The notes: generated from the letters alone by a model not told the origin. Positions 1,058 to 27,370 are shown, counted from the stretch's first letter. The stretch: DNA of 64,000 nucleotides from Candidatus Tectimicrobiota bacterium (GCA_026005175.1 BPKO01000013.1:7430-71429); one strand, 5' to 3'. Program-made: numbers and translations.

Positions 1058-1126
1058 GGGTCGCTCCTTCTCGTTGCCTTACGGCAGTGGGGTCTGCGGG
1101 CAGCATACGCTGCCGGCGCCGGGGTG

Positions 1127-1864: not shown

Positions 1865-1873
1865 AGCGCCACC

Positions 1874-3926: not shown

Positions 3927-4034
3927 GAAGCGAGCCTCCGCTGCCTGGGGACGAGCCCATTGTACCACGGACTGGATCTGGCCGCAGGGGGCTGCTATGA
4001 TGGGAAAGCCCTCGCGACAAGGAGACGACGAGCG

Positions 4035-5267: not shown

Positions 5268-5279
5268 GGAGCTGCGGAG

Positions 5280-6407: not shown

Positions 6408-6418
6408 GAGGTCTCGCC

Positions 6419-11909: not shown

Positions 11910-13018
11910 ATGACGGCAGCGCGGTTGACCGTGGACATTTACAAGCGCCTGGAGCACTTCCCCCTGCGCGTGCAGCTGCAAGCGGGCAGCGAGATCCTGG
12001 TGCTCTTTGGTCCTTCAGGAGCAGGCAAGAGCCTGACGCTGCACGCCATTGCCGGGCTGGTGACGCCGGAGCACGGCGAGATCTGCTTCGACGGCCACGT
12101 CTTCTTTCGCTACCGCCGCGGCGAGCCCAGTATCCACGTGCCGGCGCGCAAGCGGCGAGTGGGCTACGTTTTCCAGCACCTGGCGCTGTTTCCCCACCTG
12201 ACGGCGCTGGAAAACGTCGCCTACCCCCTGTGGCGGCAGCGCCAGGGGCGCGAGCAGGCCCTGGCCTGGCTGGAGCGCATGCGCCTGGCGCACCTGGCCC
12301 ACCGCTACCCGCACGAGCTCTCGGGGGGCCAGCAGCAGCGGGTGGCCCTGGCGCGGGCCCCCTGGCGGCACAGCCGCGCCTTTTGCTCCTTGACGAGCCC
12401 TTCTCCGGGCTCGACGCGCCGGTGCGCGAGCAGCTGCAGCGCGACTTGCGCCGGCTGCAGCGCGAGCTCGGCCTGGTGGTGCTTTACGTTACCCACCACC
12501 TGGAAGAGGCCTTTGCCTTGGGCCACCGCCTGGCGCTGCTGCGCGACGGCCAGGTGGAGCAAGTAGGCCCTGTGGAGGACGTCTTCCGGCGCCCGGCCAC
12601 CTCGGAGGCGGCGGCGCTGCTGGGCATCCGCAACCTGTTCCGCGCGCGCGTCGTCGACGCCTCGCCGGCTGGCCTGCTGCTCGACTGGGACGGCCTGCTG
12701 CTAGAGGCGCCGCTGCAGCGCGCCGCGGCGGGAGAGGCGGTCACGGCGTACGTGCGCCCCGAAGACGTGAAGATTCTCTATCCTGACCGGCCGCTGGGGC
12801 CTTCAGTGCGTGCCAACCAAGTCGAGGGGGTGATCGTGACACACCGAGGGCAGGGGAGCTTTCACACCCTCTACGTGGCCATCGCCAACGGGCACGAGAT
12901 CGAAGTGCGCTTCCCGGCTTACGCCTACGTGCCCCTGCGCCTGGCGGCAGGCGAGCGGGTGCGGCTGTCGCTGCGCCGCGAAGGCGTGGTGCTGCTGCCC
13001 GCTAAACCGGTGGAATAA
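11910..13018 (+). pseudogene. modC: molybdate ABC transporter ATP-binding protein, one frameshift
   Basis: Walker A GPSGAGKS and signature LSGGQQQRVALARA, then a shift at CCCCC 12358-12362 into the frame of ORF 12230..13018 (LAAQPRLLLLDEPFSGLD plus a TOBE-like C-terminus). Confidence 0.85.
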
Positions 13019-13251
13019 GGAGAGCGACGAGGGCCGTGGGCGCCCCTTCAGGAAACACCGCCCGCCGCGGGCTAGCCCGCCGCAGGCACCGGGGTAGCCG
13101 GGGAAGTGCAGAGTATGGCCAAGAGCCTACCACTGGCGCAAGCCTCCGTGCAAGTCTGCCGGGTGGCGCTGCCTGCCGGAGCGGCGTAAGATAGGCGCAA
13201 GCAGGGCAGCCGCCGCTGCCTTGCTGCCCTTTCGAGAAGAAGGAGACCGAT

Positions 13252-14015
13252 ATGGAGCCCTACACGATTTACGCCGTGCAGTACGCCCAGCGCGAGACCA
13301 ATTCTACCGAGGTCTTCTACGGCGACTACCACAATACGCCCATGAAGATGGCTTACTACGTCTGGGGCCCTCAGCAACGGCGAGCACACCGTGGTCGTCG
13401 ACTTGGGCTTTACCGAAGCCGTGGGCACCCGCCGCGGCCGGCAGTTCCTGCGCTGCCCGTCGCGTGGCCTGGCAGAAATCGGCATCGACTGCGCCCGCGT
13501 CGAACACGTCATCCTCACCCACTTCCACTACGACCACGTGGGCAACTACGCCCTCTTTCCCCGCGCCGTGTTTTACGTGCAAGACGACGAGATGGCCTTC
13601 TACACCGGGCGCTACGCCAACCAGCCGGCCTTTCGCCACTCGGTGGAAGTGGACGACATCGTGGCCCTGGTGCGCTACAACTACGAAGGCCGGCTGGTCT
13701 TTGTCGACGGGGACCAGGAAATCGTGCCCGGCATCTGCGTGCACAAAGTGGGAGGGCACACCGCCGGCATGCAGGTGGTTAGCGTGCACACCCGAGAGGG
13801 GCGGGCAGTGGTGGCCTCCGATGCCTCGCACTACTACCACAACTTCGAGAAGAACGTCCCCTTCATGGTCCTGCACGACTTGCCCGGGATTGTACCGCGC
13901 CTTTACCCGCCTGCGCGCCTTGGCCGAGCGGCCCGACCTCATCATCCCCGGACACGATCCGCTGGTGCTGGAGCGGCTGCGCCCGGTAGGGGAGGGCATC
14001 GTGGCCCTGGGCTAG
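13252..14015 (+). pseudogene. MBL-fold metallo-hydrolase (lactonase-like), two frameshifts
   Basis: MEPYTIYAVQYAQRE...YYVW | ALSNGEHTVVVDLGF...THFHYDHVGN...HKVGGHTAGMQ...FMVLHDL | GLYRAFTRLRALAERPDLIIPGHDP. The shifts are near GGGGCCC 13364-13370 and CCCGGG 13883-13888. Confidence 0.8.
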
Positions 14016-14125: not shown

Positions 14126-15730
14126 GTGCCCAGCCAGACCCGCGGCGTCCCTGCCCTCTACCGCCGGCTCGAAGAGCGCATCCTGGCGCGCGACCAGCTT
14201 GGCGCCAGCCAGGTCTTCTACGACCTGGTGCGTGCCGGACGGCCCCTGCCCGAGCTGCTGCGCGAGACGGTGCGCATCCACGGCCCCTATACGCACGTGC
14301 CTTACCACCAGCGCCTCGACCAGGGCTTTGTGCGCTTTGTCAACAACGACCACTGCCTGCTCAGTGCCCGCACCAGCCTGCGCCTGCCGGCTTTCTTGCC
14401 CTCTGAGCTGCACTACCTGCCCATGGCGCAGACCATCTGGTACGTGCCCACCGGCCTCGACCCCTGGAACCAGCTTTTGGGCAAAATGCCCGGCCACTAC
14501 GCGCGCCGCACCTACCACCCGCTGCCCGATGCCCCGCCACCCCCGCCCCAGGTGCACTGGCCCGATCAAGAACCGCGCTTCCTCGACGGCCCATACGAAG
14601 AGCGCCTCAACACCTGGCTCACCCTGGTGGAGCGCGGCCAGGTGCTCGAAGCCTACCGCGTCTTCCTGGGGCTTTTTGCCGAGCGCCGGCGGCGCCCGCA
14701 GCTCCTGGCGCACCTGGCCTTTGCCGGCCTCATCGACGTGCAGGACCGCATGCTCTACAACCGCTCGTACACCACCGGCCACAAGGCTTACCGCGCCCGC
14801 GCCACCATCGAGCTGGGCGAGGCGGTGGGCTGGGAGCGCGCCCACCCGATCCTCTACGCCGGGGTTCCCGACATGGCCGTGGGCCCGCGCTGGTACTCGG
14901 CGTACGAGATGGCCTGCCAGGTGAGCTGGACGCGGCTGGCAGAGGAAGAGGCCAGGCCGGCTTCCTCGCTCGACCCCAGCCCACCGGGGCCCCCCGAAGC
15001 GCGGCTGCTGGCCAACCGCACGCCCCTGACGCGCCGGGAGCGGCGGCGCCTGCTGCAAGCGCTCACCGAAGCCCACGAACCCGACTACATCGAGGAAATC
15101 ACCGCCTTGCTGCGGCGTGGCAAGGACCCGCTGCAGCTTGTCGACACCTTGCAGGTAGCGGCGGCCAGGATCCTGCTCGAGGTGGGCCAGCCGGGCAACT
15201 TCTCCATGCCCCAGCACGGCTACGAGTACACCAACACGCTGCGCTGGTTCTTCGACACCTTTGCCCACCCGCTGCGCCTGCGCTTGCTTTACGTCGCCGG
15301 CTCGTTCGTCAACCAGTGCGCCTGGTGGGTGCGCCACACCCCCGGCAACGGCGCCGCCGATGCGCGCCCGCCGCGCGGCGCTACCGACTTGGCCCCGCAG
15401 GAGCTGCTGCGGCGCCTCGACGCCGCCATGGTGGCGCTCAGACCGGCAGAGAGCGTGGCCTGGACGCGGGCCTATCTCAAAGCCGGCTACGACCGCAAGC
15501 CACTGCTGACCACCCTGGCGCTGGGGGCGGTGAAGCAAGGCAACGACCCCCACAACCAGGAAATCGGCCTCTGCCTGCTCGAGGACTACCTGCGCAGCAC
15601 CGCCCCCGACCGCGATGTGCTGCTGCTTGCCTGCGCCCAGCACACCGCCGGCCACGTCAAGTACGGCGACCCGCTGGAGTGCTACCGGCGCTTTATGGAG
15701 GCCTTTGGCCTCAGCGCGCCGCTGGCGTGA
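14126..15730 (+). CDS. conserved hypothetical protein (~534 aa), paralog of 22122..23675
   Basis: GTG at 14126 preceded by AAGGAAGGAG. The frame is open to 15730. It shares HVPxHQ, NxDH, YVPxGLDxWxQL, PGHY and GHKAxRxR...GWERAH...GVPD blocks with the second copy. I recognise no known domain. Confidence 0.7.
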   Translation: MPSQTRGVPALYRRLEERILARDQLGASQVFYDLVRAGRPLPELLRETVRIHGPYTHVPYHQRLDQGFVRFVNNDHCLLSARTSLRLPAFLPSELHYLPMAQTIWYVPTGLDPWNQLLGKMPGHYARRTYHPLPDAPPPPPQVHWPDQEPRFLDGPYEERLNTWLTLVERGQVLEAYRVFLGLFAERRRRPQLLAHLAFAGLIDVQDRMLYNRSYTTGHKAYRARATIELGEAVGWERAHPILYAGVPDMAVGPRWYSAYEMACQVSWTRLAEEEARPASSLDPSPPGPPEARLLANRTPLTRRERRRLLQALTEAHEPDYIEEITALLRRGKDPLQLVDTLQVAAARILLEVGQPGNFSMPQHGYEYTNTLRWFFDTFAHPLRLRLLYVAGSFVNQCAWWVRHTPGNGAADARPPRGATDLAPQELLRRLDAAMVALRPAESVAWTRAYLKAGYDRKPLLTTLALGAVKQGNDPHNQEIGLCLLEDYLRSTAPDRDVLLLACAQHTAGHVKYGDPLECYRRFMEAFGLSAPLA

Positions 15731-15739
15731 GGAGGGACG

Positions 15740-17128
15740 ATGCGGCCACGCCTCTTCGTGCGGCGCACGCGCTTGCCGGCAGCGGCGGAGGACGCCTTTC
15801 GCTGGCACGCCTGCCCCGATGCCCTGGCGCGCCTTGCGCCGCCGTGGCTGCCGGTGACGGTGCTGAGCCGCAGCGGCGGCCTGGAAGACGGCGCCCGCGT
15901 GGTCCTGGGCCTGCGCCGCGGCCCGGTACACTGGCGCTGGGTGGCCGAGCACCGCGACTGCCTCCCCGGGCGCCAGTTTTGCGACGTGCAGGTGGCCGGA
16001 CCCTTTGCTTTCTGGGAACACACGCACCGCTTCGAGCCGGCCGGACCCGAGGCCTGCATCCTGGAAGACCGCATCCGCTACCGGCTGCCCTTTGGCCCGG
16101 GCGGCCAGCTCCTCGCCGGATGGCTGGTCGAGCGCCAGCTGGCGCGCCTCTTTGCCTACCGCCATGCGGTGACGGCGCAGGACCTCGCCGCCCATGCCCC
16201 TTGCAGGGAGGGAAAGCCGATGCACGTGCTCGTCAGTGGCGCCAGCGGCCTGATCGGTTCGGCCCTGGTGCCTTTTCTCACCACCGGCGGCCACCGGGTA
16301 ACGCGCCTGGTGCGCACCACCCCGCCGCCTGAGGGCGCCGTGGCCTGGAATCCGGACTACGGCGAGCTGGAAGCCAGCGCCCTGGAGGGCCTCGATGCCG
16401 TGGTGCACCTGGCCGGGGAGAACATCGCCCGCGGCCGCTGGACCCCGGAGAAAAAAGCGCGCATTCGCGACAGCCGCGTGCACGGCACGCGCCTGCTGTG
16501 CGAAACCCTGGCCCGCCTGGAGCGCCCGCCGCAGGTGCTGGTCAGCGCGTCGGCCATCGGCTACTACGGCAACCGCGGCGACGAGTTGCTGCGCGAAGAG
16601 AGTCCGCCCGGCGACGACTTCCTCGCCCAGGTGTGCCGCGACTGGGAAGCGGCAACCGCCCCGGCTGCTGCCCGCGGCATCCGCGTCGTCAACCTGCGCC
16701 TGGGGGTGGTGCTGAGCCCGCGGGGCGGCGCGCTGGCGCAGATGCTCACCCCCTTCCGCCTGGGCCTGGGCGGGGTGGTGGGCACGGGACGGCAGTACAT
16801 CAGCTGGATCGCCATCGACGACGTGGTGGAGATCATTCACTTCTGCCTGCTCACCGAAAGCCTCAAGGGGCCGGTCAACGCCGTGGCGCCACAGCCGGTG
16901 ACCAACGCCGAGTTCACCCGCACCCTGGGCCGCGTGCTGCGGCGGCCGACGCTGCTGCCGCTGCCGGCGGCGGTGGCCCGCCTGCTCTTTGGCGAAATGG
17001 CCGACGCCCTGCTCCTGGCCAGCACGCGCGTCGAGCCCGCCCGCCTGCTGGCCAGCGGCTACCGCTTTCGCTATCCGGAACTGGAAGGCGCCTTGCGCCA
17101 CCTCCTGGGCAAACCGCGCGTGGCGTAG
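15740..17128 (+). CDS. SRPBCC-domain / TIGR01777 (YfcH-like) NAD-dependent epimerase family fusion
   Basis: The N-terminal ~150 aa look like a cyclase/SRPBCC domain. Then VLVSGASGLIGSAL Rossmann, ...YISWIAIDDVV and a C-terminal DUF1731-like RFRYPELEGAL. Confidence 0.8.
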   Translation: MRPRLFVRRTRLPAAAEDAFRWHACPDALARLAPPWLPVTVLSRSGGLEDGARVVLGLRRGPVHWRWVAEHRDCLPGRQFCDVQVAGPFAFWEHTHRFEPAGPEACILEDRIRYRLPFGPGGQLLAGWLVERQLARLFAYRHAVTAQDLAAHAPCREGKPMHVLVSGASGLIGSALVPFLTTGGHRVTRLVRTTPPPEGAVAWNPDYGELEASALEGLDAVVHLAGENIARGRWTPEKKARIRDSRVHGTRLLCETLARLERPPQVLVSASAIGYYGNRGDELLREESPPGDDFLAQVCRDWEAATAPAAARGIRVVNLRLGVVLSPRGGALAQMLTPFRLGLGGVVGTGRQYISWIAIDDVVEIIHFCLLTESLKGPVNAVAPQPVTNAEFTRTLGRVLRRPTLLPLPAAVARLLFGEMADALLLASTRVEPARLLASGYRFRYPELEGALRHLLGKPRVA

Positions 17129-17150
17129 GGCGCTGCGGGAGGAAGACGCC

Positions 17151-18509
17151 ATGGAGACGCGCGATGTGGTCCGCCAGGCCATCGAGGCCGGCGTGCAGCT
17201 GGTCTTCTTCCTTTACTGCGACAACGGCGGCATCATCCGCGGCAAGGGCACCCACGTGGCCCGCCTCGAGCAGCGGCTGCGTACCGGCATCGGCCTTACC
17301 GTGGCCATGCAGGCGATGAGCGACATGGACCAGCTGCAGGCAGTGCCCGGCATGGGGCCGGTGGGCGAGGTGCGCCTGGTGCCCGACCCCCAGACGTTTA
17401 CCGTCCTGCCCTATGCCCCCAAGCGCGCCGTGATGCTCGCCGACTTGCTCACCCTGCAGGGAGAGCCCTGGGGTGCCTGCCCGCGCAGCTTCCTCAAGCG
17501 CATGGTGCAGAAGGCGGCGGCGCAGGGGCTGCGCCTGCGTGCCGCCTTCGAGCCGGAGTGGACTCTGGCGCGCCGCCGCGACGACGGCACCGTGGTGCCC
17601 ATCGACGACAGCCTGTGCTTTAGCAGCGTCGGCATGACCGCCGCCCAGGAGGTGGTCGACGCCATCGTGGCCGCCCTCGAAGCACAGGGGCTCGAGGTGG
17701 AGCAGTACTACCCCGAGCTCGGCCACGGCCAGCAGGAGCTCAGCATCCGCTTTGCCGACGCCCTGCGCGCCGCCGACAACCAGATCCTCTACCGCGAAAC
17801 GGTGCGCAACGTGGCCTGGCAGCACGGCTACCTCGCCTCGTTTGCCCCCAAACCCTTTGCCGACCAGGCCGGCAACGGCTGCCACCTGCACTTTAGCCTC
17901 TGGGACCTGGCCGGAGAACGCAACCTCTTCTACGACCCCGAAGATCCCCTGCAGCTGAGCCAGACGGCTTACCACTTCCTTGCCGGCGTGCTGGCCCACC
18001 TGCCAGCCCTGGTGGCCCTGACGTGCCCCAGCGTCAACAGCTACCGCCGCCTTGGCCCGCGCACCTGGAGCTCGGCCTTTGTCTGCTACGGCCCCGACAA
18101 CCGCGAGGCCGCCCTGCGCATTGCCTCGCCATTCTGGGGGCAGGAGATGGCCTCGCTTAACCTAGAGCTCAAGCCGGCCGACGCCACCGCCAACCCCTAC
18201 CTCGCCCTGGGCGGCCTGCTCGCCGCGGGGCTCGACGGCCTCGCGCGCGGCCTGCAGCCGGCCGAAGGACAGCGGGTGGACGTCGACCCCGCCACCTTGC
18301 CTCCGGAAGAGCTGGCCCGCCGCGGCATCCGGCGCCTGCCAGCCAGCCTGCCCGAGGCCATTGCCGCCCTGGAAAGCGACGCCACCCTCCTGGAGGCCCT
18401 GGGGCCAGCGCTGGCCACCTCGTACCTGGCGGTGCGGCGCGGTGACGCGGCGCTGTTTGCGTCGCACGACGAGGCATTCGAGCTGCGCCACCACTTCTAC
18501 AAGTACTGA
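17151..18509 (+). CDS. glutamine synthetase family protein (gamma-glutamyl ligase-like)
   Basis: EQYYPELGHGQQELS, FAPKPFADQAGNGCHLHFSLW, NSYRRL and DNREAALRI are GS catalytic-domain motifs. ATG 17151 follows GGGAGGAAG. Confidence 0.9.
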   Translation: METRDVVRQAIEAGVQLVFFLYCDNGGIIRGKGTHVARLEQRLRTGIGLTVAMQAMSDMDQLQAVPGMGPVGEVRLVPDPQTFTVLPYAPKRAVMLADLLTLQGEPWGACPRSFLKRMVQKAAAQGLRLRAAFEPEWTLARRRDDGTVVPIDDSLCFSSVGMTAAQEVVDAIVAALEAQGLEVEQYYPELGHGQQELSIRFADALRAADNQILYRETVRNVAWQHGYLASFAPKPFADQAGNGCHLHFSLWDLAGERNLFYDPEDPLQLSQTAYHFLAGVLAHLPALVALTCPSVNSYRRLGPRTWSSAFVCYGPDNREAALRIASPFWGQEMASLNLELKPADATANPYLALGGLLAAGLDGLARGLQPAEGQRVDVDPATLPPEELARRGIRRLPASLPEAIAALESDATLLEALGPALATSYLAVRRGDAALFASHDEAFELRHHFYKY

Positions 18510-18512
18510 GCC

Positions 18513-19682
18513 ATGCGCCACCAAGCCGCCCTGGAGGCCTTCCTGGCCACCTTGCCGGTGCTCGACGGCCACTGCCACCCGCCGCGCCGCCAGCCCCCGG
18601 CGAGCGCCGAAGCCTTCCAGCGCTTTTTCAGCGAAAGCGACGACCCGCAGCTGGCCGCCCGGCACGTGCCGCACAGCCTCTTCTTCCAGCACAGCCTGCA
18701 GCAGCTGGCCACCCTGCTGGACACCCCGGCCGAGGTGGCGGCGCTGCTCGAGCGGCGCCAAGCCCTGGGGCTGCGCGACTACCTGCACCTGCTGGTGCAG
18801 CGCAGCAACCTGCGCGGCTTGCTGGTGGACGACGGCTACCGGCCCGAGGCCAGCTACACCTGCGCCGAGCTGCAGGCCCTGCTCGCCGGCACTTCCTGCC
18901 GCGTCTGGCGCGTGCTGCGCCTGGAAACGCTGGCCGAACAGCTGCTGGCGGCGCACCCCGACTTTGCCGCCTTCCTCGACGCCTACCGCGCCGCCTTGCA
19001 AGAGCTGCGCGCGCAGGGCATAGTGGCCCTCAAGAGCATCATTGCCTACCGCACTGGCCTGGCCGTAGAGCCTCCGGACGCCAAGGCGGCGGCGCAGGCC
19101 TTTGCCCAGGCGCGGCAAGCGCTGGCCCGCGACGGCCGCGTGCGCCTGGCACACAAGCCGCTGCTCGACTTTTTGCTCGCCGTGGCCCTGGAGGCGGCAG
19201 CACAGCAGGGCCTGCCGGTGCAGCTCCACACCGGCTTTGGCGACCCCGACCTCGACCTCCTGCAAAGCAACCCCTTGCTCCTGCGCCCCCTGCTGCACCG
19301 CGAGCCGGCCCCCCGGGTGCCCCTGGTGCTCCTGCACGCTTATCCTTACCTGCGCGAGGCCGCTTACCTGAGCAGCGTCTACGCCAACGTCTACGTCGAC
19401 TTGTCGCTCGCCTTTCCCATGCTGCACCTTGCCGCCGAGCGCGCCCTGGAAGAGGTGCTGGGGCTGGCGCCGGTGTCCAAGGTGCTGTACGGCTCTGACG
19501 CTGCGGGCTTGCCCGACTGGCTGTGGCTGGGCGTCCTGGCCTGCCGCCGCGCCCTGGCGCGCCTCTTGGCCGCCTGGGTCGAGGCAGGGCTGCCCGAAGC
19601 CCAGGCCCGCGCCGTGGCCGAGGCCATCCTCTACGCCAACGGCTGCGCCCTCTACGGGGTGCCCCTGGACCCACTGCCATGA
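18513..19682 (+). CDS. amidohydrolase-family (TIM-barrel metal hydrolase) protein
   Basis: N-terminal LDGHCHP, later VQLHTGFGD and LLHAYPY...GSDA. It starts 3 nt after the GS-like stop. Confidence 0.75.
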   Translation: MRHQAALEAFLATLPVLDGHCHPPRRQPPASAEAFQRFFSESDDPQLAARHVPHSLFFQHSLQQLATLLDTPAEVAALLERRQALGLRDYLHLLVQRSNLRGLLVDDGYRPEASYTCAELQALLAGTSCRVWRVLRLETLAEQLLAAHPDFAAFLDAYRAALQELRAQGIVALKSIIAYRTGLAVEPPDAKAAAQAFAQARQALARDGRVRLAHKPLLDFLLAVALEAAAQQGLPVQLHTGFGDPDLDLLQSNPLLLRPLLHREPAPRVPLVLLHAYPYLREAAYLSSVYANVYVDLSLAFPMLHLAAERALEEVLGLAPVSKVLYGSDAAGLPDWLWLGVLACRRALARLLAAWVEAGLPEAQARAVAEAILYANGCALYGVPLDPLP

Positions 19683-20168
19683 GCGCCGTGCGCTGGGTGC
19701 TGTTTCTGTGCACCGGCAACTACTACCGCAGCCGCTTTGCCGAGCTGCTCTTCAACGCCCTGGCCGCCGCCCGCGGCCTGCCCTGGCGCGCCTTCTCGCG
19801 CGGCCTGGCCCTGGAGAAAGGGCGCCACAACCGCGGGCCCATGGCCCCCGTCGCCGTGGAAGCGCTGCGCGCCCGCGGCATTCCCTTGCAGGGAAGCGAG
19901 CGCCCCCCGCGCCAGGTGAGCGAAGACGACTTGCGGCGCGCCGCGCTGATCGTCGCCCTGGAGGAAGCCGAGCACCGCCCCTACCTGCAAGCGCGCTACC
20001 CCCGCCTGGGCCGAGCGCGTGGTGTACTGGCACGTCCGTGACACGCTGCCGCAGCCGCAGTACAATCCCCTGGACGTCATCGAAGCGGAAGTGCGAGGGC
20101 TGGTGGCAAAGCTAGAGGGCGAGGAGGAGCCGCCGTGTTCGACTTCGGAGGGGAAAGGCTGCGCCTGA
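19679..20168 (+). pseudogene. low-molecular-weight phosphotyrosine phosphatase / ArsC-like, one frameshift
   Basis: P-loop VLFLCTGNYYRSRFAE. After ...LQARYP the frame shifts at CCCCC 19999-20003 to AWAERVVYWHVRDTLPQPQYNPLDVIEAEVRGLV. ATGA overlap with the upstream gene. Confidence 0.75.
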
Positions 20169-20398
20169 ACTACCCGTGCCGCTGGGTGTACAAAGTCATC
20201 GGCTCGGGGCAAGAGCAAGTGCGCCAGGCCATTGACGAAGTGGTAGCCGGCTACGACTACACGGTCACCTTTTCCAACGCCAGCAAGACGGGAAAATACT
20301 GCTGCCTCAACGTCGAGCTCACCGTCGACAGCGAGGCCGTCCGCACCCACCTCTACCGGGCCCTCAAGCAGCACCCCCACGTGATCCTAGTGCTGTAG
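20135..20398 (+). CDS. DUF493 (YbeD-like) small protein
   Basis: LNYPCRWVYKVIGSG...TVTFSNASKTGKYCCLNVELTV pattern. GTG follows GAGGAGGAG. Confidence 0.7.
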   Translation: MFDFGGERLRLNYPCRWVYKVIGSGQEQVRQAIDEVVAGYDYTVTFSNASKTGKYCCLNVELTVDSEAVRTHLYRALKQHPHVILVL

Positions 20399-21803
20399 CC
20401 GGCCAGCGCCGGTGCCAGGAGGTGTGCTGCTCGTACGCGTAGGCCAGGCGCAGTATCGTGGCCTCGTCGAAGGGGCGGCCGGCGAGCTGCAGCCCGATGG
20501 GCAGCCCCTCGTTGCTAAAGCCGCAGGGCAGGGAGAGGGCCGGCAGGCCGGTGAGGTTGAAGGGGCGGGTGAAGCGGGCCAAGTTGGCCGCCACCACCAC
20601 CTCGCTGCCGCCCAAGCGCACCACCGGCTCGTCGAGGCGCGGCGCCGGCAGCAGCGTCGTCGGCGTGGCCAGAGCGTCGACGCGCCGCAGCGCCTCGCCG
20701 ACTTCCTGGCACAGCAGGGCGCGAAAGCGCTGCGCTTTCAGGTAGTGCGCCCCCAGCACCGTGCTGCCCAGCGCCAGCCGCAGGCGCACGTCGGCGCCGT
20801 AGTCCTGCGGCCGCGTGCGCAGCCAGGCCTCGTGCACGGCGTAAGCCTCAGTGACCATGATGGCCAGGGAGGCGCCGGGCACATCGCGCATCAGGGGGAG
20901 GTCGAGGTCTACGCAGGTCACGCCCAGCTCGCGCAGCACCGCCAGGGCGGCCTCCACAGCACGAGCCACCTGCTCGTCGAGCTGCTCGAAAAAGAAGGGG
21001 CGCGGCACGCCCAGGCGCAGGCCGCGCACCTCGCCGCGCAAGGCCCCGGCATAGTCAGGGACCGGCAGGCGGCGGGTAGTGGGGTCGGCGGGGTCATGGC
21101 CGGCAATGGCTTGCAGCACCAGGGCGGCGTCGGTCACGCTGCGGGTGAGCGGCCCCGGGTGGTCAAGCGACCAGCAGAGGGGAAAGACACCGTGGCGGCT
21201 GACGCGCCCGTAAGTGGGCTTGAGGCCAACCACGCCGCACAGGGCAGCAGGAATGCGCACCGAGCCGCCGGTGTCGGTGCCCAGGGTGGCCATGGCCAGC
21301 CCGGCGCGGGTGGCCACCGCCGAGCCACCGCTTGAGCCCCCGGGAAGGCGCGTGGGGTCCCAGGGATTGCACGGCGTGCCGTAGTGGGGGTTGATGGACG
21401 TGGCACCCCAGGCGAATTCGTGCAGGTTGAGGGTGCCCAGCAGCACGGCCCCGGCGTCTTCGAGGCGCTGTACCACGGTGGCTTGCTGCTGCGCCACGTG
21501 CTGCGCCAGGATCTGCGAGCCGCAGGTCATGCGCACGCCGCGAATAGCAAAGAGATCTTTGACGGCCACGGGGATGCCGTGCAGGGGGCCGCGGTACTGG
21601 CCGCGGGCAATCTCCGCCTCGGCGCGCCGCGCCGCGGCCAGCGCCCGCTCGGGCAGCACGGTGAGGTAGGCCCGCAGGCGGTCGTTCTCCCGGGCGATGC
21701 GCTCCAGGTGCGCTTGTGTTACCTCCACCGGCGACACCTCGCGCCGCTGCAGCCGCGGCGCCAGCTCGGCAATGGTAAAGCGGGTGAGTTCCTCAGCCGC
21801 CAT
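20364..21803 (-). CDS. amidase-signature enzyme (AtzE/GatA-like)
   Basis: GIPVAVKDLF and GGSSGGSAVATRAGLAMATLGTDTGGSVRIPAALCGVVGLKPTYGRVSR. The preferred start is MAAEELTRF at 21803, which overlaps the stop of the upstream mini-ORF. Confidence 0.9.
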   Translation of the reverse strand: MAAEELTRFTIAELAPRLQRREVSPVEVTQAHLERIARENDRLRAYLTVLPERALAAARRAEAEIARGQYRGPLHGIPVAVKDLFAIRGVRMTCGSQILAQHVAQQQATVVQRLEDAGAVLLGTLNLHEFAWGATSINPHYGTPCNPWDPTRLPGGSSGGSAVATRAGLAMATLGTDTGGSVRIPAALCGVVGLKPTYGRVSRHGVFPLCWSLDHPGPLTRSVTDAALVLQAIAGHDPADPTTRRLPVPDYAGALRGEVRGLRLGVPRPFFFEQLDEQVARAVEAALAVLRELGVTCVDLDLPLMRDVPGASLAIMVTEAYAVHEAWLRTRPQDYGADVRLRLALGSTVLGAHYLKAQRFRALLCQEVGEALRRVDALATPTTLLPAPRLDEPVVRLGGSEVVVAANLARFTRPFNLTGLPALSLPCGFSNEGLPIGLQLAGRPFDEATILRLAYAYEQHTSWHRRWPATALGSRGGAA

Positions 21804-21999
21804 CGCCCTCTCCTGGCAGGCAGGCAAAGCGCAGCGCCGGCTCTACCGCGGCCAGGTCCAGCGCCTCGAGCCGGTGCAGCTCGGCCAGCAGGGCTGCCGC
21901 CTGCGGCACGAGTTCCGCCAGCTCGGCATCGCCAAAGGGCAGCCCGGCCAGGGCAGCCAGCTGCCGCAGGGTTTCCAGGGTGACGGGGGACTCGGCCAT
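21793..21999 (-). CDS. GatC/AtzG-like small subunit (~68 aa)
   Basis: MAESPVTLETLRQLAALAGLPFGDAELAELVPQAAALLAELHRLEALDLAAVEPA is a GatC-like pattern. SD AGAGGAG upstream. It overlaps the amidase start by 11 nt. Confidence 0.65.
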   Translation of the reverse strand: MAESPVTLETLRQLAALAGLPFGDAELAELVPQAAALLAELHRLEALDLAAVEPALRFACLPGEGDGG

Positions 22000-22054
22000 G
22001 AACGTCTCCTCTGTGGCAGGCATGCCGGCACATTGTACCACAGCCGCGGAGGCC

Positions 22055-22083
22055 TTGCCTCCGTCCAGGCCTTTTGCTATAAA
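22055..22083 (+). promoter_or_regulatory. candidate promoter TTGCCT-N17-TATAAA
   Basis: Read directly. It lies in the divergent gap between 21999 and 22122. Confidence 0.35.
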
Positions 22084-22121
22084 GAGCCCGGACCGCGCAA
22101 CGCCTTACGGGAGATCCCGCC

Positions 22122-23675
22122 ATGACCCGCCCCGATGCCGTGCACCTGCGCCAAATGGACGACTATATCCTCGACGGCAAGTACCACGAGGCCACCGAGC
22201 TCTTCTGCCAGCTGGCCACCGCCGGCCACCCCGTGCCCGACTTGGTGGTGCACGTGATGGAAACCGCCGCCCCTTACCTGCACGTGCCGGCGCACCAGAA
22301 GCTGCTGCCCAACGGCGAGTTTCGCAACGTCAACTACGACCATACCATTCTCGGCATTCGGGCCGGCATGCGCCTCATGCCTTACCTGTCGGACAAAGAG
22401 AAGTACCTGACCCTCGTCCAGGCCGTTTACTACGTGCCGCAGGGGCTCGACATCTGGTCGCAGCTCGACTGCGGGTTTCCCGGCCACTATTCGCGCGAGC
22501 AGGAGCGTTGCCCCGAAGACCAGATCCGCAAGGAGCTGCACTGCTACTTCGAGGATCAGGAGCCGCTGGTGGAGGGCTCGGTAGAAGAGCGCTTCCAGCG
22601 CCTGCTGTACGCCCTTACCCACGGCGACCGGGTGACCGGCTACCGCCTCTTCCTGGGGCTGGCGCAGCTGCCCGAGGTGCGCCGGCGCCTGGAGGACACC
22701 TTGCTCTTTGCCGCCATCATCGACCAGCAGGAGTTCAACTCCTTCCGCCGCGTGCGCCACATCGGCCACAAGGCCATCCGCATCCGCTCCATGTTCGATA
22801 TTGCCCACTGGCTGGGCTGGGAGCGGGCCCACAGCTTTTTCTACGTCGGCGTGCCTGACTTGGCCACGCTGCCCATTTTTCACTCGCTCTATGACCACGC
22901 CAGCGTGGTGCTGGGCATGACGTTCAAGGGCGAGCAGTATACGCTGCACACCCGCAACACGGCGCTGCTCGACCCCCAGCGGCAAGAGCGCTTCATCGGC
23001 CGCATCCTGGAAGGCGACCCCCTGGCGGTGAGCGAGGAGATCACCGCCTTGCTGCAGCAGGGCTACGCCCTGCGCAGCATCGCCGACACGGTGATGCTGG
23101 CCCACGCCCGCCACTGCGTGGAGAAGCTGCGCGCCCCTATTGCCTATACCGTGCCCACGCACAGTTTTGATTACTGCAACGTCATCAACCACTGGCTGCG
23201 GGCGTTTCGCAACCCCCACCAGGCCAAGGCGGTCTACCTGGGGGCCTGGTTCGTCACCGACACCATCCGCGAAGTGGACTGGTATCCTGACGTGCCCGAG
23301 GTGGAAAAGCCCGACCCGGCGCCGTTTCGCCGCTGGGCCGACGGCCTGGCGCGGCGCCAGGTGCTGGCCGCGCTGGAGGAAGCCATCGCCGCCCAGGACG
23401 CCTCGCGCGCCATGGCCCTGGTGCAGTCATACGTGGAGCGCACCGCCGAGCGCGACGAGCTCATACGCCTGCTGGTGCACTGCGCCGGCAAGTTCCAGGG
23501 CGACGCCCACATCTTCCGCAATGCCCGCTCGATGATCGAGGAGTACACGGCGAGCACGTGCAGCGAGGCGCAGAAGAACGTCTTCTTTGTGGCCTGGGCC
23601 AAGTTCCTGGCGTTTTACAAAAAGCGCACCCTGTCGACAGCCTGCTATGACCTCTACCATCGCTACTTTGTCTGA
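22122..23675 (+). CDS. conserved hypothetical protein (517 aa), paralog of 14126..15730
   Basis: Full-length ORF with SD GGGAGA. It is collinear with the 14126 protein (blocks listed there). Confidence 0.75.
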   Translation: MTRPDAVHLRQMDDYILDGKYHEATELFCQLATAGHPVPDLVVHVMETAAPYLHVPAHQKLLPNGEFRNVNYDHTILGIRAGMRLMPYLSDKEKYLTLVQAVYYVPQGLDIWSQLDCGFPGHYSREQERCPEDQIRKELHCYFEDQEPLVEGSVEERFQRLLYALTHGDRVTGYRLFLGLAQLPEVRRRLEDTLLFAAIIDQQEFNSFRRVRHIGHKAIRIRSMFDIAHWLGWERAHSFFYVGVPDLATLPIFHSLYDHASVVLGMTFKGEQYTLHTRNTALLDPQRQERFIGRILEGDPLAVSEEITALLQQGYALRSIADTVMLAHARHCVEKLRAPIAYTVPTHSFDYCNVINHWLRAFRNPHQAKAVYLGAWFVTDTIREVDWYPDVPEVEKPDPAPFRRWADGLARRQVLAALEEAIAAQDASRAMALVQSYVERTAERDELIRLLVHCAGKFQGDAHIFRNARSMIEEYTASTCSEAQKNVFFVAWAKFLAFYKKRTLSTACYDLYHRYFV

Positions 23676-23699: not shown

Positions 23700-25295
23700 A
23701 TGTTCTTGCCCCTGACGCCGCTGCACTTCTTGCAGCGTGCCGCGCGGCTCTTCCCCACCAAAACGGCGGTGGTGGACGGCGCGCGGCGCTACACGTACGC
23801 CACCTTGCAAGAGCGCGTCCACCGCCTGGCCAACGCCCTGCGCCAGCTGGGGGTGGGCAAAGGGGACAAAGTGGCCGTGCTCTCTCCCAACAGCCACCGC
23901 ATGCTGGAGAGCTTCTTTGCGGTGCCCCAGCTCGGCGCCGTGCTCACCCCCCTCAACTACCGCCTCACCACCCCGGAGTTTGCTTACATTCTGGAGCACT
24001 CCGAGAGCAAGGTGGTGCTCGTCGACTGGGAGTACGCCCACCAGCTGGCGCCGCTCACGTCCCGGCTGGCCGGGGTGCAACACTACGTCTTGCTGCGCGA
24101 CGAAGAACCCCCTACGGCGCCGCTGCCGGCTGAGGACTACGAGGCGCTGCTGGCTGCCGCCAGCCCCGAGCCGCCGCCGCCGGTCGAGCTTGCCGAAACC
24201 GACATTGCCACCCTCAACTACACCAGCGGCACCACGGCGCAGCCCAAAGGGGTGATGCTCAGCCACCGCGCCTGCGTCATCAACGCCATCAACTACATCG
24301 TGGCGCTTCACGTGCGCCCCACCGACGTCTACCTGCACACCCTGCCCATGTTCCACGCCAACGGCTGGGGCGGCATCTGGGCCCTGGCTGGCCTGGGCGG
24401 CACGCAGGTGTGCCTGCGCAAGGTGGAGGCGCAGGCGGTCTTCGAGCTCATGGAGCGCGAAGGGGTAACCCTGGCCTGCGCCGCGCCCACGGTGCTGGTG
24501 ACCCTGGCCAGCTATGAGAAGGCGCGAGACTACCGCCTGGCGCCGGGCCTGCGCATCGGCACCGGCGGCGCGCCGCCGGCCGCCGCGGTGCTGCGCAACA
24601 TGGAGGCGCTGGGCATCGAGGTCATCCACCTCTACGGCCTCACCGAGACCGGCCCCTTCCTCACGTCTTGCGAGTGGCAGCCGGCCTGGGAGGCCCTGGC
24701 GGTGGAAGAGCGCTACCGCCGCAAGGCCCGCCAGGGCATCGCCCAGCTGCTCACCGACGTGCGCGTCGTCGACGCGCAGGGGCGCGAGGTGGCCTGGGAC
24801 GGCAAGACCGTCGGCGAAATCGTCGCCCGCGGCAACAACGTCATGGAGGGCTACTACAAGCAGCCCGAGGAAACCGCAAAGGTGCTGCGCGGCGGCTGGC
24901 TGCACACCGGCGACCTGGCGGTGGTGCACCCCGACGGCTACATCGAGGTGGTGGACCGCGCCAAGGACGTGATCATCAGCGGCGGCGAGAACATCTCTTC
25001 GGTGGAAGTGGAGGCCACCCTCTACGACCACCCGGCGGTGCTGGAAGCGGCGGTGGTGGGGGTGCCCGACGCCAAGTGGGGCGAGGTGCCCAAGGCCATC
25101 GTGGTGCTCAAGCCCGGGCAGCAGGCCACGGAGGAAGAGCTCATCGCGTTCTGCCGGGCCCGCATGGCCCACTTCAAAGCCCCCAAGTCGGTGGAGTTCG
25201 TCGCCAGCCTGCCCAAGACGGCCACCGGCAAGATCCAGAAGTTCGCCCTGCGCGAGCGCTACTGGCAAGGCTACGACAAGCGCGTGCAGGGCTAG
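23700..25295 (+). CDS. AMP-dependent acyl-CoA synthetase/ligase
   Basis: LNYTSGTTAQPKGVMLSH, YGLTETG, GWLHTGDLA and PKTATGKIQK. SD GGAGGAGG. Confidence 0.92.
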   Translation: MFLPLTPLHFLQRAARLFPTKTAVVDGARRYTYATLQERVHRLANALRQLGVGKGDKVAVLSPNSHRMLESFFAVPQLGAVLTPLNYRLTTPEFAYILEHSESKVVLVDWEYAHQLAPLTSRLAGVQHYVLLRDEEPPTAPLPAEDYEALLAAASPEPPPPVELAETDIATLNYTSGTTAQPKGVMLSHRACVINAINYIVALHVRPTDVYLHTLPMFHANGWGGIWALAGLGGTQVCLRKVEAQAVFELMEREGVTLACAAPTVLVTLASYEKARDYRLAPGLRIGTGGAPPAAAVLRNMEALGIEVIHLYGLTETGPFLTSCEWQPAWEALAVEERYRRKARQGIAQLLTDVRVVDAQGREVAWDGKTVGEIVARGNNVMEGYYKQPEETAKVLRGGWLHTGDLAVVHPDGYIEVVDRAKDVIISGGENISSVEVEATLYDHPAVLEAAVVGVPDAKWGEVPKAIVVLKPGQQATEEELIAFCRARMAHFKAPKSVEFVASLPKTATGKIQKFALRERYWQGYDKRVQG

Positions 25296-25765: not shown

Positions 25766-25881
25766 ACCGGACTCCTTCTCCTAACGCACAGGGCTTTTGC
25801 CAGGGGAGTTCCCTCACGGACGCCTGGCTGCCGCGCGCCCGGGACGAAAAATTTTTTCGCTTTTGGTTACCAGGGGTTGCC

Positions 25882-25910
25882 GGAACTTGCCGGGGGCGAC
25901 GCGACACATT
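25882..25910 (+). promoter_or_regulatory. possible ECF-type promoter (GGAACTT -35)
   Basis: GGAACTT at 25882-25888. CGAC/CACAT elements follow 15-17 nt downstream, about 30 nt before ATG 25937. The -10 match is weak. Confidence 0.3.
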
Positions 25911-25936
25911 TGGCCCGCTCGGGGAACTACCTCACG

Positions 25937-26506
25937 ATGAACTGGGACCGGCTGCGCCCCGCTGACCAGAGCGTGCACGAGGCCATTGCCGCCGGCGACT
26001 ACCGGCGCGCCCTGGAGGCGCTGGTGGCGGGGTACCAGCACCCGGTGGTGGGCTTCTGCACGCACATGCTGGGCGATGCCGCGCTGGGGGAGGACGTGGC
26101 GCAGGACGTCTTCCTGGCTGCCTATGCGGCCATGCCCGGCTTTCACCGCCACGCCTCGGTGCGCACCTGGCTGTTTGCCATTGCCCGCAAGCGCTGCTTG
26201 CAGGTGCTGCGCAACCGCCGCCGCCAGGCCCGCCTCGCCCGGCTCAAGCAACACTGGCTGGCCGCCGGGGCCCATCGCCAGCCGCCGCCTTCCCCGGAGG
26301 CAGAAGCGGACAGCGCGGTGCAGCGCGTGCAGGCGGGGCTGCAGCGGCTCCCCGAGGCGGAGCGCGCTTTGCTGCTGATGCGCTACGAGCTGGGCTTGCC
26401 CCTGACCGAAGTGGCCCACATCCTGGGGACCTCGGTGAGCAGCGTGCGCCGGCGGCTGGCGCGGGCCCTGAGGCGGCTGCAGGAGGCGATGGCAGATGAC
26501 GCCTGA
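25937..26506 (+). CDS. ECF-family RNA polymerase sigma factor
   Basis: Region 2 DVAQDVFLAAY...RTWLFAIARKRCL and region 4 LPEAERALLLMRYELGLPLTEVAHILGTSVSSVRRRLARA. ATG 25937 is preferred over the ORF-track start at 25877. Confidence 0.88.
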   Translation: MNWDRLRPADQSVHEAIAAGDYRRALEALVAGYQHPVVGFCTHMLGDAALGEDVAQDVFLAAYAAMPGFHRHASVRTWLFAIARKRCLQVLRNRRRQARLARLKQHWLAAGAHRQPPPSPEAEADSAVQRVQAGLQRLPEAERALLLMRYELGLPLTEVAHILGTSVSSVRRRLARALRRLQEAMADDA

Positions 26507-27227: not shown

Positions 27228-27370
27228 ACCCGCTTGCACCCGCCGGTGGCTTGCGGTACAACTCTTCTTGCCTCAGGCCGCTTCTTGCCCCTCCTGCCTC
27301 CCGGTATTCCCCGTAGCGGCCGCCGCGGCTCTGGGGTGTGTCGTCCCCGTCTTGGGCAAAGGAGTGCGGC

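Follow-up and report, generated by a model that had tools for sequence, protein, structure and literature searches.

The 64,000-nucleotide stretch of Candidatus Tectimicrobiota DNA analysed here, referred to below as the window, encodes two proteins, A and B, whose genes lie on either side of a group of enzyme genes. The original prediction described them as old duplicates that fit no recognisable family and raises the question considered in this article: are A and B truly related, do they belong to any known protein family, and which biochemical task might they perform in the bacteria that carry them?

Two anciently diverged paralogs in the window

Both open reading frames are present where the original prediction had placed them. 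Each is the first gene of an operon, and the genes concerned are as follows.

14126..15730, + strand: paralog A, 534 aa, start codon GTG, at the head of a tight four-gene operon
15740..17128, + strand: fusion of an SRPBCC (polyketide-cyclase-like) part with a TIGR01777/YfcH-type NAD(P)-binding reductase (SRPBCC-SDR), beginning 9 nt past A
17151..18509, + strand: glutamine-synthetase-like (GS-like) ligase, nearest model gamma-glutamylputrescine synthetase, score under the cut-off
18513..19682, + strand: Amidohydro_2 enzyme, final gene of the A operon
20364..21827, - strand: amidase-signature enzyme, AtzE-like with a score under the cut-off, divergent from B
22122..23675, + strand: paralog B, 517 aa, start codon ATG, at the head of an operon whose only other gene is that of the acyl-CoA synthetase
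23700..25295, + strand: acyl-CoA synthetase, beginning 24 nt past B

The order in the first operon is A, SRPBCC-SDR, GS-like ligase and Amidohydro_2 enzyme. The GTG codon at 14126 is preceded by a AGGAAGGAG ribosome-binding site, and a start at this position agrees with the N-termini of homologs. A public call of A as a 779-aa protein (P0121) is an artefact, arising because the metallo-beta-lactamase gene upstream is split over three reading frames and its core is open in the frame of A. Each copy had been credited with its own candidate promoter, but a sigma-70 scan does not bear this out: no site ahead of A or B qualified, and the sole promoter-like match before A is TTGACA-17-TACCTT.

In BLASTP, A and B are collinear, with 30% identity and 47% positives over 527 columns (E=2e-67), and the alignment spans nearly the whole length of each protein (~520 residues). 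The proposed end-to-end collinearity is thus confirmed by the very comparison that had been suggested as a check on paralogy. Eight of the nine sequence motifs said to be shared were matched by regular expression in both proteins and in identical order, namely HVPxHQ(R/K)L, NxDHxxL, YVPxGLDxWxQL, PGHY, (V/L)FLGL, GHKAxRxR, GWERAHxxxYxGVPDxA and EEITALL(R/Q)xG; the DQEP...EER block occurs in both as well, with one residue more in A. Each paralog has its own orthologs in other organisms, at 70-77% identity (60-77% across phyla), whereas A and B share only 30%. The split between them is therefore ancient rather than the outcome of a recent repeat, as had been supposed, and A and B are real, anciently diverged paralogs.

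The suggestion that the two copies bracket one gene cluster holds for position only. The B operon lies beyond the oppositely oriented amidase, separate from the A operon, and the genes between A and B form no single unit. Nor do two copies delimit a cluster conserved elsewhere: besides the window, two paralogs were found only in L020 among ~150 loci.

A large family without a name

Searches with Pfam and NCBIfam gave no match for A, B or ~15-17 diverse relatives, even at E<=10, and a scan of 10 unusually long or short relatives with the same two collections revealed neither a family nor a fused domain. Among PDB sequences, single-sequence and two-profile searches returned chance matches only. 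The view that these proteins can be assigned to no family is upheld by all three kinds of search. Its further option, that they might be regulators, finds no support, as no DNA-binding domain was detected. One source names the homolog P0033 a GntR regulator, a label rejected here, since neither a GntR nor any other HTH Pfam domain was found in P0033 or in any other member scanned.

A query with A retrieved 2071 clusters at 90% identity, and a profile search yielded 762 representatives (E<=1e-3). In 185,579 species-representative genomes, 464 places encode a relative. All 80 loci listed among these places come from metagenome-assembled genomes, and the taxa represented in them are Methylomirabilota/Rokubacteria, Binatia, Tectimicrobiota, Chloroflexota and Alphaproteobacteria. 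A tblastn search of 72,556 plasmids gave no family match, so no cultured-organism plasmid in that set carries a member. The family is large and widespread, and it is without a name, a database domain or a solved structure.

Invariant residues and an internal repeat

The conserved residues had been described as rich in histidine. In 250 members, non-redundant at 90% identity, seven residues are invariant (H61, H76, H219, H364, H476, D249 and Y368 in A numbering), and the same five histidines, aspartate and tyrosine never vary among 17 sequences that represent clusters at 50% identity. Lys220, Arg223 and Arg225 are near-invariant. Judged from sequence, this set fits a putative metal site, as had been proposed.

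These residues are distributed along a chain with an internal repeat. The repeat is a three-helix module of ~45 residues, present in three or four copies per chain, each copy being followed by an invariant histidine (H61, H219, H364 and H476 in A, with H76 as the fifth). The positions are given below.

14159..14296, + strand: module R1 of A, residues 12-57, three helices
14306-14308 and 14351-14353, + strand: codons of A His61 and His76, invariant, after R1
14606..14722, + strand: module R2 of A, residues 161-199, weakly similar to the other modules
14780-14782, + strand: codon of A His219, invariant, followed by Lys220, after R2
15041..15178, + strand: module R3 of A, residues 306-351
15215-15217, + strand: codon of A His364, followed by Tyr368, invariant, after R3
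15404..15538, + strand: module R4 of A, residues 427-471
15551-15553, + strand: codon of the histidine in A D474-P-H476, invariant, after R4
22293..23510, + strand: span of the five invariant histidine codons of B (H58 22293-22295, H74 22341-22343, H216 22767-22769, H347 23160-23162, H463 23508-23510)

In hhalign comparisons, the probabilities were 92 for R1-R3, 78 for R1-R4 and 72 for R3-R4, with scores of 28-36. The R1-R3 score of 36 stands against a mean of 10.6 (sd 2.1) for column-shuffled profiles and 10.7 for a reversed control, and for the weaker R1-R2 pair the probability was 23 and the score 21.6, where shuffled profiles averaged 10.0. P-x-H61 of R1 and P-x-H364 of R3 occupy the same columns of the global alignment.

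The position three residues past the last histidine (residue 479 in A) distinguishes the clades. It is glutamate in all 145 members of the A clade and arginine in all 93 of the B clade; other clades have R (8), K (3) or Q (1).

Predicted structures

Structure prediction followed by a Foldseek search, which had been recommended as a check, produced confident models and no significant PDB match. The AlphaFold2 models of A (pLDDT 87.4, pTM 0.90) and B (pLDDT 94.9, pTM 0.93) are both all-alpha, and neither matched anything in the PDB at E<=1e-3; a search of the viral structures of BFVD gave no significant match. The sole full-length Foldseek match with TM >0.3 to both models was BruN (8yxs_A), with E-values of 0.08 and 0.56 and a TM of 0.32-0.38, which is under the usual same-fold level; 7Y3W and 8Z4Q were absent from the best 50. 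The Foldseek 'probability' means little here, because it exceeded 0.9 equally for unrelated uncharacterised viral proteins with similar E-values.

Two assignments to cofactor-dependent families were rejected. A cobalamin-binding protein is contradicted by the absence of a PF02310 match and by all-alpha models without a Rossmann domain. Membership of the known F420-dependent families (LLM, FDOR/PNPOx-like, Fno), which would be expected to show a TIM-barrel, split-barrel or Rossmann fold, is likewise contradicted by all-alpha models and by the lack of any Pfam or NCBIfam match.

Proposed function

A and B are probably metal-binding enzymes of uncultured soil and marine bacteria, acting in the breakdown of organic acids. 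More specifically, it is tentatively proposed that they represent a new family of histidine-rich metalloenzymes, possibly oxygenases, that catabolise aromatic or CoA-activated acids. In this proposal, both would be cytoplasmic, all-helical proteins built from three-helix modules, in which the five histidines, D249, Y368, Lys220, Arg223 and Arg225 would line one central pocket. These residues would form a mononuclear site, with Fe(II) as the most likely metal, and the most likely activity would be that of an O2-dependent oxygenase or a ring- or C-C-cleaving enzyme. The mode of action may resemble that of the four-His non-heme-iron dioxygenases BTG13, PaD and BruN, minus their carboxylated lysine.

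Substrates may differ between clades, since residue 479, located one helix turn past the last histidine, is always glutamate in one and arginine in the other. Aromatic or other carboxylic acids, in many cases bound as CoA thioesters, would be degraded aerobically by these enzymes with redox enzymes as partners. A would work in this genome with the reductase, a gamma-glutamyl ligase and the Amidohydro_2 enzyme, and B with the acyl-CoA synthetase.

Gene neighbourhoods and alternative explanations

To describe the surroundings of the family, ~1,440 neighbour proteins from 148 loci were clustered. No single neighbour is conserved in all 148 loci, and partners differ by clade. Counting same-strand adjacent neighbours of family genes, a LigB-type extradiol dioxygenase adjoins at 8 loci (L111 and L116 among them), always directly upstream, a short-chain dehydrogenase (SDR) at 7, a luciferase-like oxidoreductase (LLM) at 6, a P450, an Amidohydro_2 enzyme and an acyl-CoA synthetase (ACS) at 4 each, a PNPOx-like protein at 3 and a BenE benzoate transporter at 2. 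In two A-clade loci (L004, L014) and two B-clade loci (L131, L136) the Amidohydro_2 gene is directly upstream. Genes for amidase-signature enzymes are found close to the family gene in L020, L096 and L119. The B-ACS pair is conserved: in L091 and L094, synthetases 78-79% identical to that of the window directly follow the closest B orthologs. Of 22 LLM genes, 14 lie within two genes of a family gene. CoA-transferase genes are not enriched close to the family gene. Some of the adjacency may be no more than background, given how greatly the LLM, CoA-transferase III and SDR families have expanded in these phyla.

A link with GS-like, amidohydrolase and AtzE/AtzG genes had been suggested for checking. 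The amidase and Amidohydro_2 part of it recurs, as does the acyl-CoA synthetase, but the remainder does not: GS-like and SRPBCC-SDR genes adjoin no other family member in ~150 loci, and no AtzG-like small ORF was detected. B12-radical-SAM genes, which seemed to recur near B-clade members, were set aside as a mixed group; the one in the window encodes the hopanoid methylase HpnR and was judged unrelated. The neighbours vary, yet they share a theme of oxidoreductases, CoA enzymes and Amidohydro_2 enzymes.

The same surroundings would suit an enzyme that depends on a metal or on His but works without oxygen, such as a hydrolase, hydratase, decarboxylase, isomerase or lyase, with ring-fission products or acyl-CoA intermediates from the neighbouring dioxygenases and ligases as substrates. 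Where the ring-cleaving LigB-type enzyme is encoded directly upstream, that enzyme may already account for the use of oxygen, and what would be needed next is an enzyme to process its product; recurrent nearby genes include those for Amidohydro_2 enzymes, amidases, aldehyde dehydrogenases and RraA/HpcH aldolases. The conserved His, Asp, Tyr, Arg and Lys residues would also suit a Zn or Mn hydrolytic or acid-base site, and R223, R225 and the B-clade arginine at position 479 suit binding of a carboxylate or CoA. However, five invariant histidines exceed the needs of typical hydrolytic sites, the searches showed no likeness to the fold or profile of any known hydrolase or lyase, and the sole full-length structural resemblance is to an oxygenase. 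An oxygen-independent enzyme of this kind is considered somewhat unlikely.

Other neighbours would fit a role with coenzyme F420 (deazaflavin): the family could assist the cofactor pathway as an accessory enzyme, or be an obligatory partner to F420-dependent LLM/FDOR reductases. LLM is the commonest adjacent partner in the A clade, and 3 of the adjacent LLM proteins pass the F420-dependent TIGR03619 cut-off. PNPOx/FDOR-like genes stand directly downstream at three B-clade loci, and one B-clade member directly follows a complete fno-cofE-cofD-cofC-fbiC operon (L007/L008). The range of the family (Chloroflexota, Rokubacteria, Tectimicrobiota, Alphaproteobacteria) also overlaps that of predicted F420 producers, which have been reviewed (PMC8498797). 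Against this, L007 and L008 are two assemblies of one stretch, so that adjacency to biosynthesis genes occurs at one place only; most loci have no LLM or FDOR neighbour, no F420 gene adjoins A or B in the window, and neither a motif nor a fold for binding nucleotide or flavin was detected. A tie to F420 is quite improbable.

It is scarcely probable that the family is non-catalytic, serving as a helical-repeat scaffold, chaperone, sensor or regulator, for although the all-helical repeat architecture, a weak local likeness to MgsA_C (2r9g, 3ctd) and to the B12-binding_2 cap, and the GntR label of one homolog speak for it, HTH and DNA-binding domains are absent even from the protein so labelled, an invariant polar set (five His, Asp, Tyr, two Arg, Lys) at helix starts typifies active sites rather than scaffolds, and the genes are operonic with enzymes instead of divergent from them.

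The preferred reading, a histidine-rich metalloenzyme that is possibly an oxygenase, also has a bolder form, which must be regarded as unlikely. It envisages mononuclear metalloenzymes of a new structural class, in which four modules would form a pseudo-symmetric bundle around a central iron, each contributing one histidine and a fifth being added, without a carboxylated lysine. The class would occur almost only in uncultured phyla and, during the degradation of recalcitrant organic matter, would convert CoA-activated or aromatic acids by an O2-dependent reaction so far undescribed. The phyla referred to are Methylomirabilota, Binatia, Tectimicrobiota and Chloroflexota, including SAR202-like lineages.

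Significance

The family is sizeable and strongly conserved, has no domain annotation or significantly similar structure, and possesses invariant residues that resemble a metal site. Its hosts belong to phyla known mainly from metagenomes, and its loci are rich in oxidoreductases, CoA ligases and transferases, and amidohydrolases, enzymes regarded as degraders of complex organic matter. Knowing its reaction would give thousands of 'hypothetical proteins' an annotation, and both a new metal-binding architecture and new chemistry of the oxygenase or lyase kind could come to light. Candidate substrates are suggested by the conserved B-ACS pair and by the pair formed by LigB and the family gene, and the two confident models point to residues for mutation.

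Comparison with known systems

One local resemblance is to the C-terminal domain of MgsA/RarA (2R9G, 3CTD) and to the B12-binding_2 cap (PF02607; MtaC, 2I2X), which Foldseek matched over ~130 residues. These helical-bundle matches, with a TM of ~0.53 normalised to the target, are not significant and concern one module only. Cap-like sequence matches were below threshold (E=0.33 for repeat R3 to the MtaC cap; E=0.19 for PF02607 in one member). Unlike MgsA/RarA and B12 proteins, the family lacks an AAA+ domain, a Rossmann B12-binding domain and a DxHxxG motif.

A functional analogy may be drawn with the benzoyl-CoA epoxidase BoxB and the phenylacetyl-CoA epoxidase PaaA, which are ferritin-like di-iron proteins with Glu/His ligands and ExxH motifs. 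They, too, are helical metalloenzymes encoded beside an aromatic-acid CoA ligase, an arrangement to which the conserved B-ACS pair may be compared, and genes for CoA-transferases, acyl-CoA dehydrogenases, thioesterases and aldehyde dehydrogenases are repeatedly found near the family. In contrast to BoxB and PaaA, no ExxH motifs, Pfam match or fold match were seen in the family.

[quoted passage not shown] Their defining activity is the iron-dependent dioxygenation of a hydroquinone-type substrate, and BTG13, PaD and BruN share one fold. Membership of this family, or homology to it, is not established. The profile PF14027 of the Questin_oxidase-like (DUF4243) family gave no match in A, B or 15 diverse relatives, even at E<=10, and no PDB-sequence match to 7Y3W, 8Z4Q or 8YXS was obtained with single sequences or profiles.

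Several differences separate the two groups. BTG13-type enzymes belong mostly to fungal and plant natural-product pathways, whereas the present family occupies catabolic-looking loci of uncultured bacteria; its chain is ~80 residues longer and contains a fifth invariant histidine. The carboxylated lysine of the HxxK motif, three past the fourth histidine, would be glutamate or arginine here if the collinear mapping is right.

There are also likenesses. BTG13-type enzymes and the models of A and B are all-helical, at ~445 aa in the former and ~520 aa in the latter, PaD having 22 helices. As in BruN and PaD, ~55-60 N-terminal residues precede a His-bearing loop (H63 there; H57/H61 here). BTG13-type enzymes work with a partner reductase, and SDR, LLM and SRPBCC-SDR genes often adjoin the present family. 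The iron ligands are H63, H166, H308 and H386 in BruN and H63, H166, H317 and H394 in PaD, and H61, H219, H364 and H476 of A are collinear with them, in sequence order only, at similar spacing (PMC11575538, PMC11371914).

Two ancient paralogs of an unrecognised protein family

The central claim of the original prediction, an unrecognised, conserved and His-rich protein family, stands and is established as a real finding. Both open reading frames, A (534 aa) and B (517 aa), lie where it had placed them, in DNA of about 70% G+C, and BLASTP joins them in a single near-full-length alignment with 30% identity and 47% positives (E = 2e-67). The shared motif blocks read in them are all present, collinear and in identical order, the sole deviation being one extra residue in the DQEP...EER block of A. 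The orthologs of A share 56-76% identity with it and those of B share 61-77% with B, against 30% between A and B; the two are therefore ancient paralogs. This bears out the proposed old duplication and rules out a recent one in this genome.

The start of A is GTG 14126, preceded by AGGAAGGAG, and homolog N-termini agree with it in alignment. In the public record ('MAG: Candidatus Tectimicrobiota bacterium, KatS3mg131_3853'), A is a protein of 779 aa with a metallo-beta-lactamase (MBL) domain. This version is artefactual: A was annotated as a fusion because the MBL gene ahead of it is broken over three frames and has its core open in the frame of A. The MBL-fold gene (13250-14015, +) has its N-terminus, core and C-terminus in three different frames, which implies two frameshifts, and the C-terminus ends at TAG 14013-14015. 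Additionally, an ABC-transporter ATPase (11910-13018, +) is broken between two frames (ABC_tran 11910-12566, TOBE domains 12230-13018), and a CoA-transferase III ORF (6669-7643, +) begins only at profile position 78. These breaks suggest MAG-assembly indel errors or several pseudogenes.

Size and spread of the family

Pfam and NCBIfam scans gave no match for A or B, and 17 members covering the family diversity gave no consistent Pfam match even at E<=10. Ten relatives of unusual length carried no additional domain, and single-sequence and profile queries of all PDB sequences returned chance matches only. At 90% identity there are at least 2071 homolog clusters for A and at least 223 for B, nearly all unnamed or 'hypothetical'. 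Among 1.84 billion 50%-identity representatives, the family profile had 762 matches at E<=1e-3, of which 197 reached E<=1e-30; about twenty of the matches are distinct full-length clusters.

Among 185,579 genomes (one per species), 464 places encode a member. All 80 loci listed from these are of MAG origin, from Methylomirabilota/Rokubacteria, Binatia, Tectimicrobiota/Entotheonella, Chloroflexota (Dehalococcoidia, Tepidiformaceae), Alphaproteobacteria including Bradyrhizobium MAGs, and a few other groups. No PLSDB plasmid carries a member.

Protein anatomy

AlphaFold2 models of A (pLDDT 87.4, pTM 0.90) and B (pLDDT 94.9, pTM 0.93) are confident and all-alpha, with 26-29 helices plus a single tiny hairpin. 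Across 250 aligned full-length members, made non-redundant at 90% identity, seven residues do not vary (numbering of A): H61, H76, H219, H364, H476, D249 and Y368. Conservation is 99% for H124, R223 and R225, 98% for K220 and K512, and 94% for H57. The five histidines are also invariant in 17 representatives of 50%-identity clusters. Position 479, three residues past H476, separates the two clades: all 145 A-clade sequences have Glu there and all 93 B-clade sequences have Arg, making it a plausible specificity determinant.

Local profile-profile comparison reveals a module of three helices and about 45 residues, found at residues 12-57 (R1), 306-351 (R3) and 427-471 (R4) of A, with a weaker copy at 161-199 (R2). 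Controls, whether column-shuffled or reversed, reach scores of about 10 (sd about 2).

Table. hhalign comparison of the repeat modules
R1-R3: probability 92, score 36
R1-R4: probability 78, score 28.5
R3-R4: probability 72, score 27.9
R1-R2: probability 23, score 21.6

An invariant His comes after each module, and modules 1, 3 and 4 have a P-x-H or P-H motif after them. The four modules may pack pseudo-symmetrically, each placing one His into a common putative site.

Gene context in the window

Table. Genes around A and B
14126-15730 (+), A
15740-17128 (+), SRPBCC-YfcH-type reductase fusion, 9 nt past A
Glutamine-synthetase (GS)-like ligase, 22 nt past the fusion
Amidohydro_2 enzyme, 3 nt past the ligase
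DUF493 gene, between the A operon and B
20364-21827 (-), AtzE-like amidase-signature enzyme, opposite to the A operon and divergent from B
22122-23675 (+), B
Acyl-CoA synthetase, 24 nt past B

The first four genes are a tight operon headed by A. Its second gene is unusual: it encodes a ligand-binding SRPBCC domain (polyketide cyclase/START-like) fused to an NAD(P)-binding reductase of the TIGR01777/YfcH type. The idea that A and B bracket one gene cluster does not hold up, nor was the promoter proposed for each copy found: a strict sigma-70 scan detected none ahead of A or B. The suggested GS/AtzG association also fails, as the GS-like gene, like the SRPBCC-SDR (short-chain dehydrogenase) gene, adjoins no other family member, and no AtzG/DUF4089-like small ORF was detected beside the amidase. 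The nearest models of this amidase are AtzE, below cut-offs (401 vs 461 bits); its relatives occur near family members at three other loci (L020, L096, L119).

Elsewhere in the window, a B12-binding radical SAM protein (27338-28870, +) reaches 851.7 bits with the HpnR model for hopanoid C-3 methylase, whose cut-off is 650; 3-methylhopanoids are therefore probable products of this Tectimicrobiota MAG. Just upstream, at 25877-26506, is a gene for an ECF sigma factor.

Gene context at other loci

Genes were called with a frame-specific composition model at 87 A-type and 61 B-type loci, and about 1,440 neighbour proteins were clustered and their representatives annotated. No neighbour is universal among these loci.

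Table. Recurrent partners (adjacent: same strand, within 150 nt of the family gene)
A clade, adjacent luciferase-like oxidoreductase (LLM): 6 loci
A clade, adjacent P450, always 6 nt downstream: 4 loci
A clade, adjacent Amidohydro_2: 2 loci
B clade, adjacent divergent LigB-type class III extradiol dioxygenase, immediately upstream: 8 loci
B clade, adjacent SDR, directly downstream: 7 loci
B clade, adjacent acyl-CoA synthetase: 3 loci
B clade, adjacent PNPOx-like protein: 3 loci
B clade, adjacent Amidohydro_2: 2 loci
B clade, adjacent BenE benzoate transporter: 2 loci

Directly past the closest B orthologs (L091, L094) lie orthologs of the acyl-CoA synthetase that follows B, 78-79% identical to it; the pair of B and synthetase is thus conserved. 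Of the 87 A-type loci, 19 have an LLM within 6 kb, and 14 of the 22 LLM genes are at most two genes from the family gene; CoA-transferase III is found within 6 kb at 15 A-type loci, without such proximity. Other recurring genes encode acyl-CoA dehydrogenases, thiolase-like proteins, thioesterases, aldehyde dehydrogenases, amidases, RraA/HpcH aldolases and SBP_bac_5 transporters.

In Methylomirabilota, Rokubacteria and Verrucomicrobiia MAGs (L013, L015, L025, L030), the A-clade member is followed by the P450, and an MFS transporter gene is close by. At three of these loci, a 181-193-aa protein without a Pfam domain precedes the A-clade member. The order small protein, A-clade member, P450 looks like a fixed operon.

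Only one other locus was found with two paralogs together (L020, Methylomirabilia, 359-8486): one is A-type, and the second shares about 35% identity with each of A and B. Two LLM genes lie between the copies; the A-type copy is immediately preceded by an aldehyde dehydrogenase gene and immediately followed by an amidase gene.

Three adjacent LLMs (L011, L039, L040) pass the F420-dependent TIGR03619 cut-off. In an uncultured bacterium (L007/L008, two assemblies of one stretch), a B-clade member lies on the same strand 131 nt downstream of a full F420 biosynthesis operon. This compact operon (3802-9869) comprises an LLM fragment, fno, cofE, cofD, cofC and a fused fbiC.

Functional interpretation and comparison with known systems

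Three observations favour an enzyme over a regulator or scaffold: purifying selection is strong, the invariant set of His, Asp, Tyr, Arg and Lys lies at helix starts, and the genes are consistently placed within operons of catabolic enzymes. The genes nearby suggest a role in the aerobic degradation of aromatic or other carboxylic acids, in many cases via CoA thioesters and in many cases beside a reductase or oxygenase.

By analogy, the family is tentatively predicted to be a His-ligated mononuclear iron oxygenase, BTG13/PaD-like with a different fifth ligand. Nearly as good, and itself rather doubtful, is a metal-dependent hydrolase, lyase or isomerase with non-oxidative chemistry, acting on ring-fission or CoA intermediates. 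An F420-linked role, recalling the F420 operon and the TIGR03619-type LLMs, is improbable, and a non-catalytic role, which the purifying selection and invariant residues speak against, even more so.

Foldseek searches of the PDB gave no match at E<=1e-3 for either model, and the only full-length match with TM above 0.3 for both was 8yxs_A (A: E = 0.08, TM 0.33/0.38; B: E = 0.56, TM 0.32/0.36). Foldseek 'probabilities' were comparably high for unrelated viral proteins. Local matches to the MgsA C-terminal bundle and weak sequence matches to the B12-binding_2 cap probably reflect a generic helical module.

The 8YXS structure is that of BruN, a non-heme iron dioxygenase of the BTG13/DUF4243 type that cleaves anthraquinone-hydroquinone; its iron ligands are H63, H166, H308, H386 and carboxylated K389 (PMC11575538). 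The related PaD is all-helical, with 22 helices and ligands H63, H166, H317, H394 and K397 (PMC11371914); the BTG13-type family is reviewed in PMC12173810. The order and spacing of these histidines resemble H61, H219, H364 and H476 of the present family. However, the HxxK lysine is not conserved, the TM-scores lie below the same-fold range, there is no profile match to the BTG13/DUF4243 type, and BTG13 and PaD themselves were not recovered with either model. Since the resemblance fails several tests, BTG13-like chemistry is kept as the best available analogy, short of a claim of family membership. The best description places the family close to an enzyme type of recent discovery; it may instead form a new fold class.
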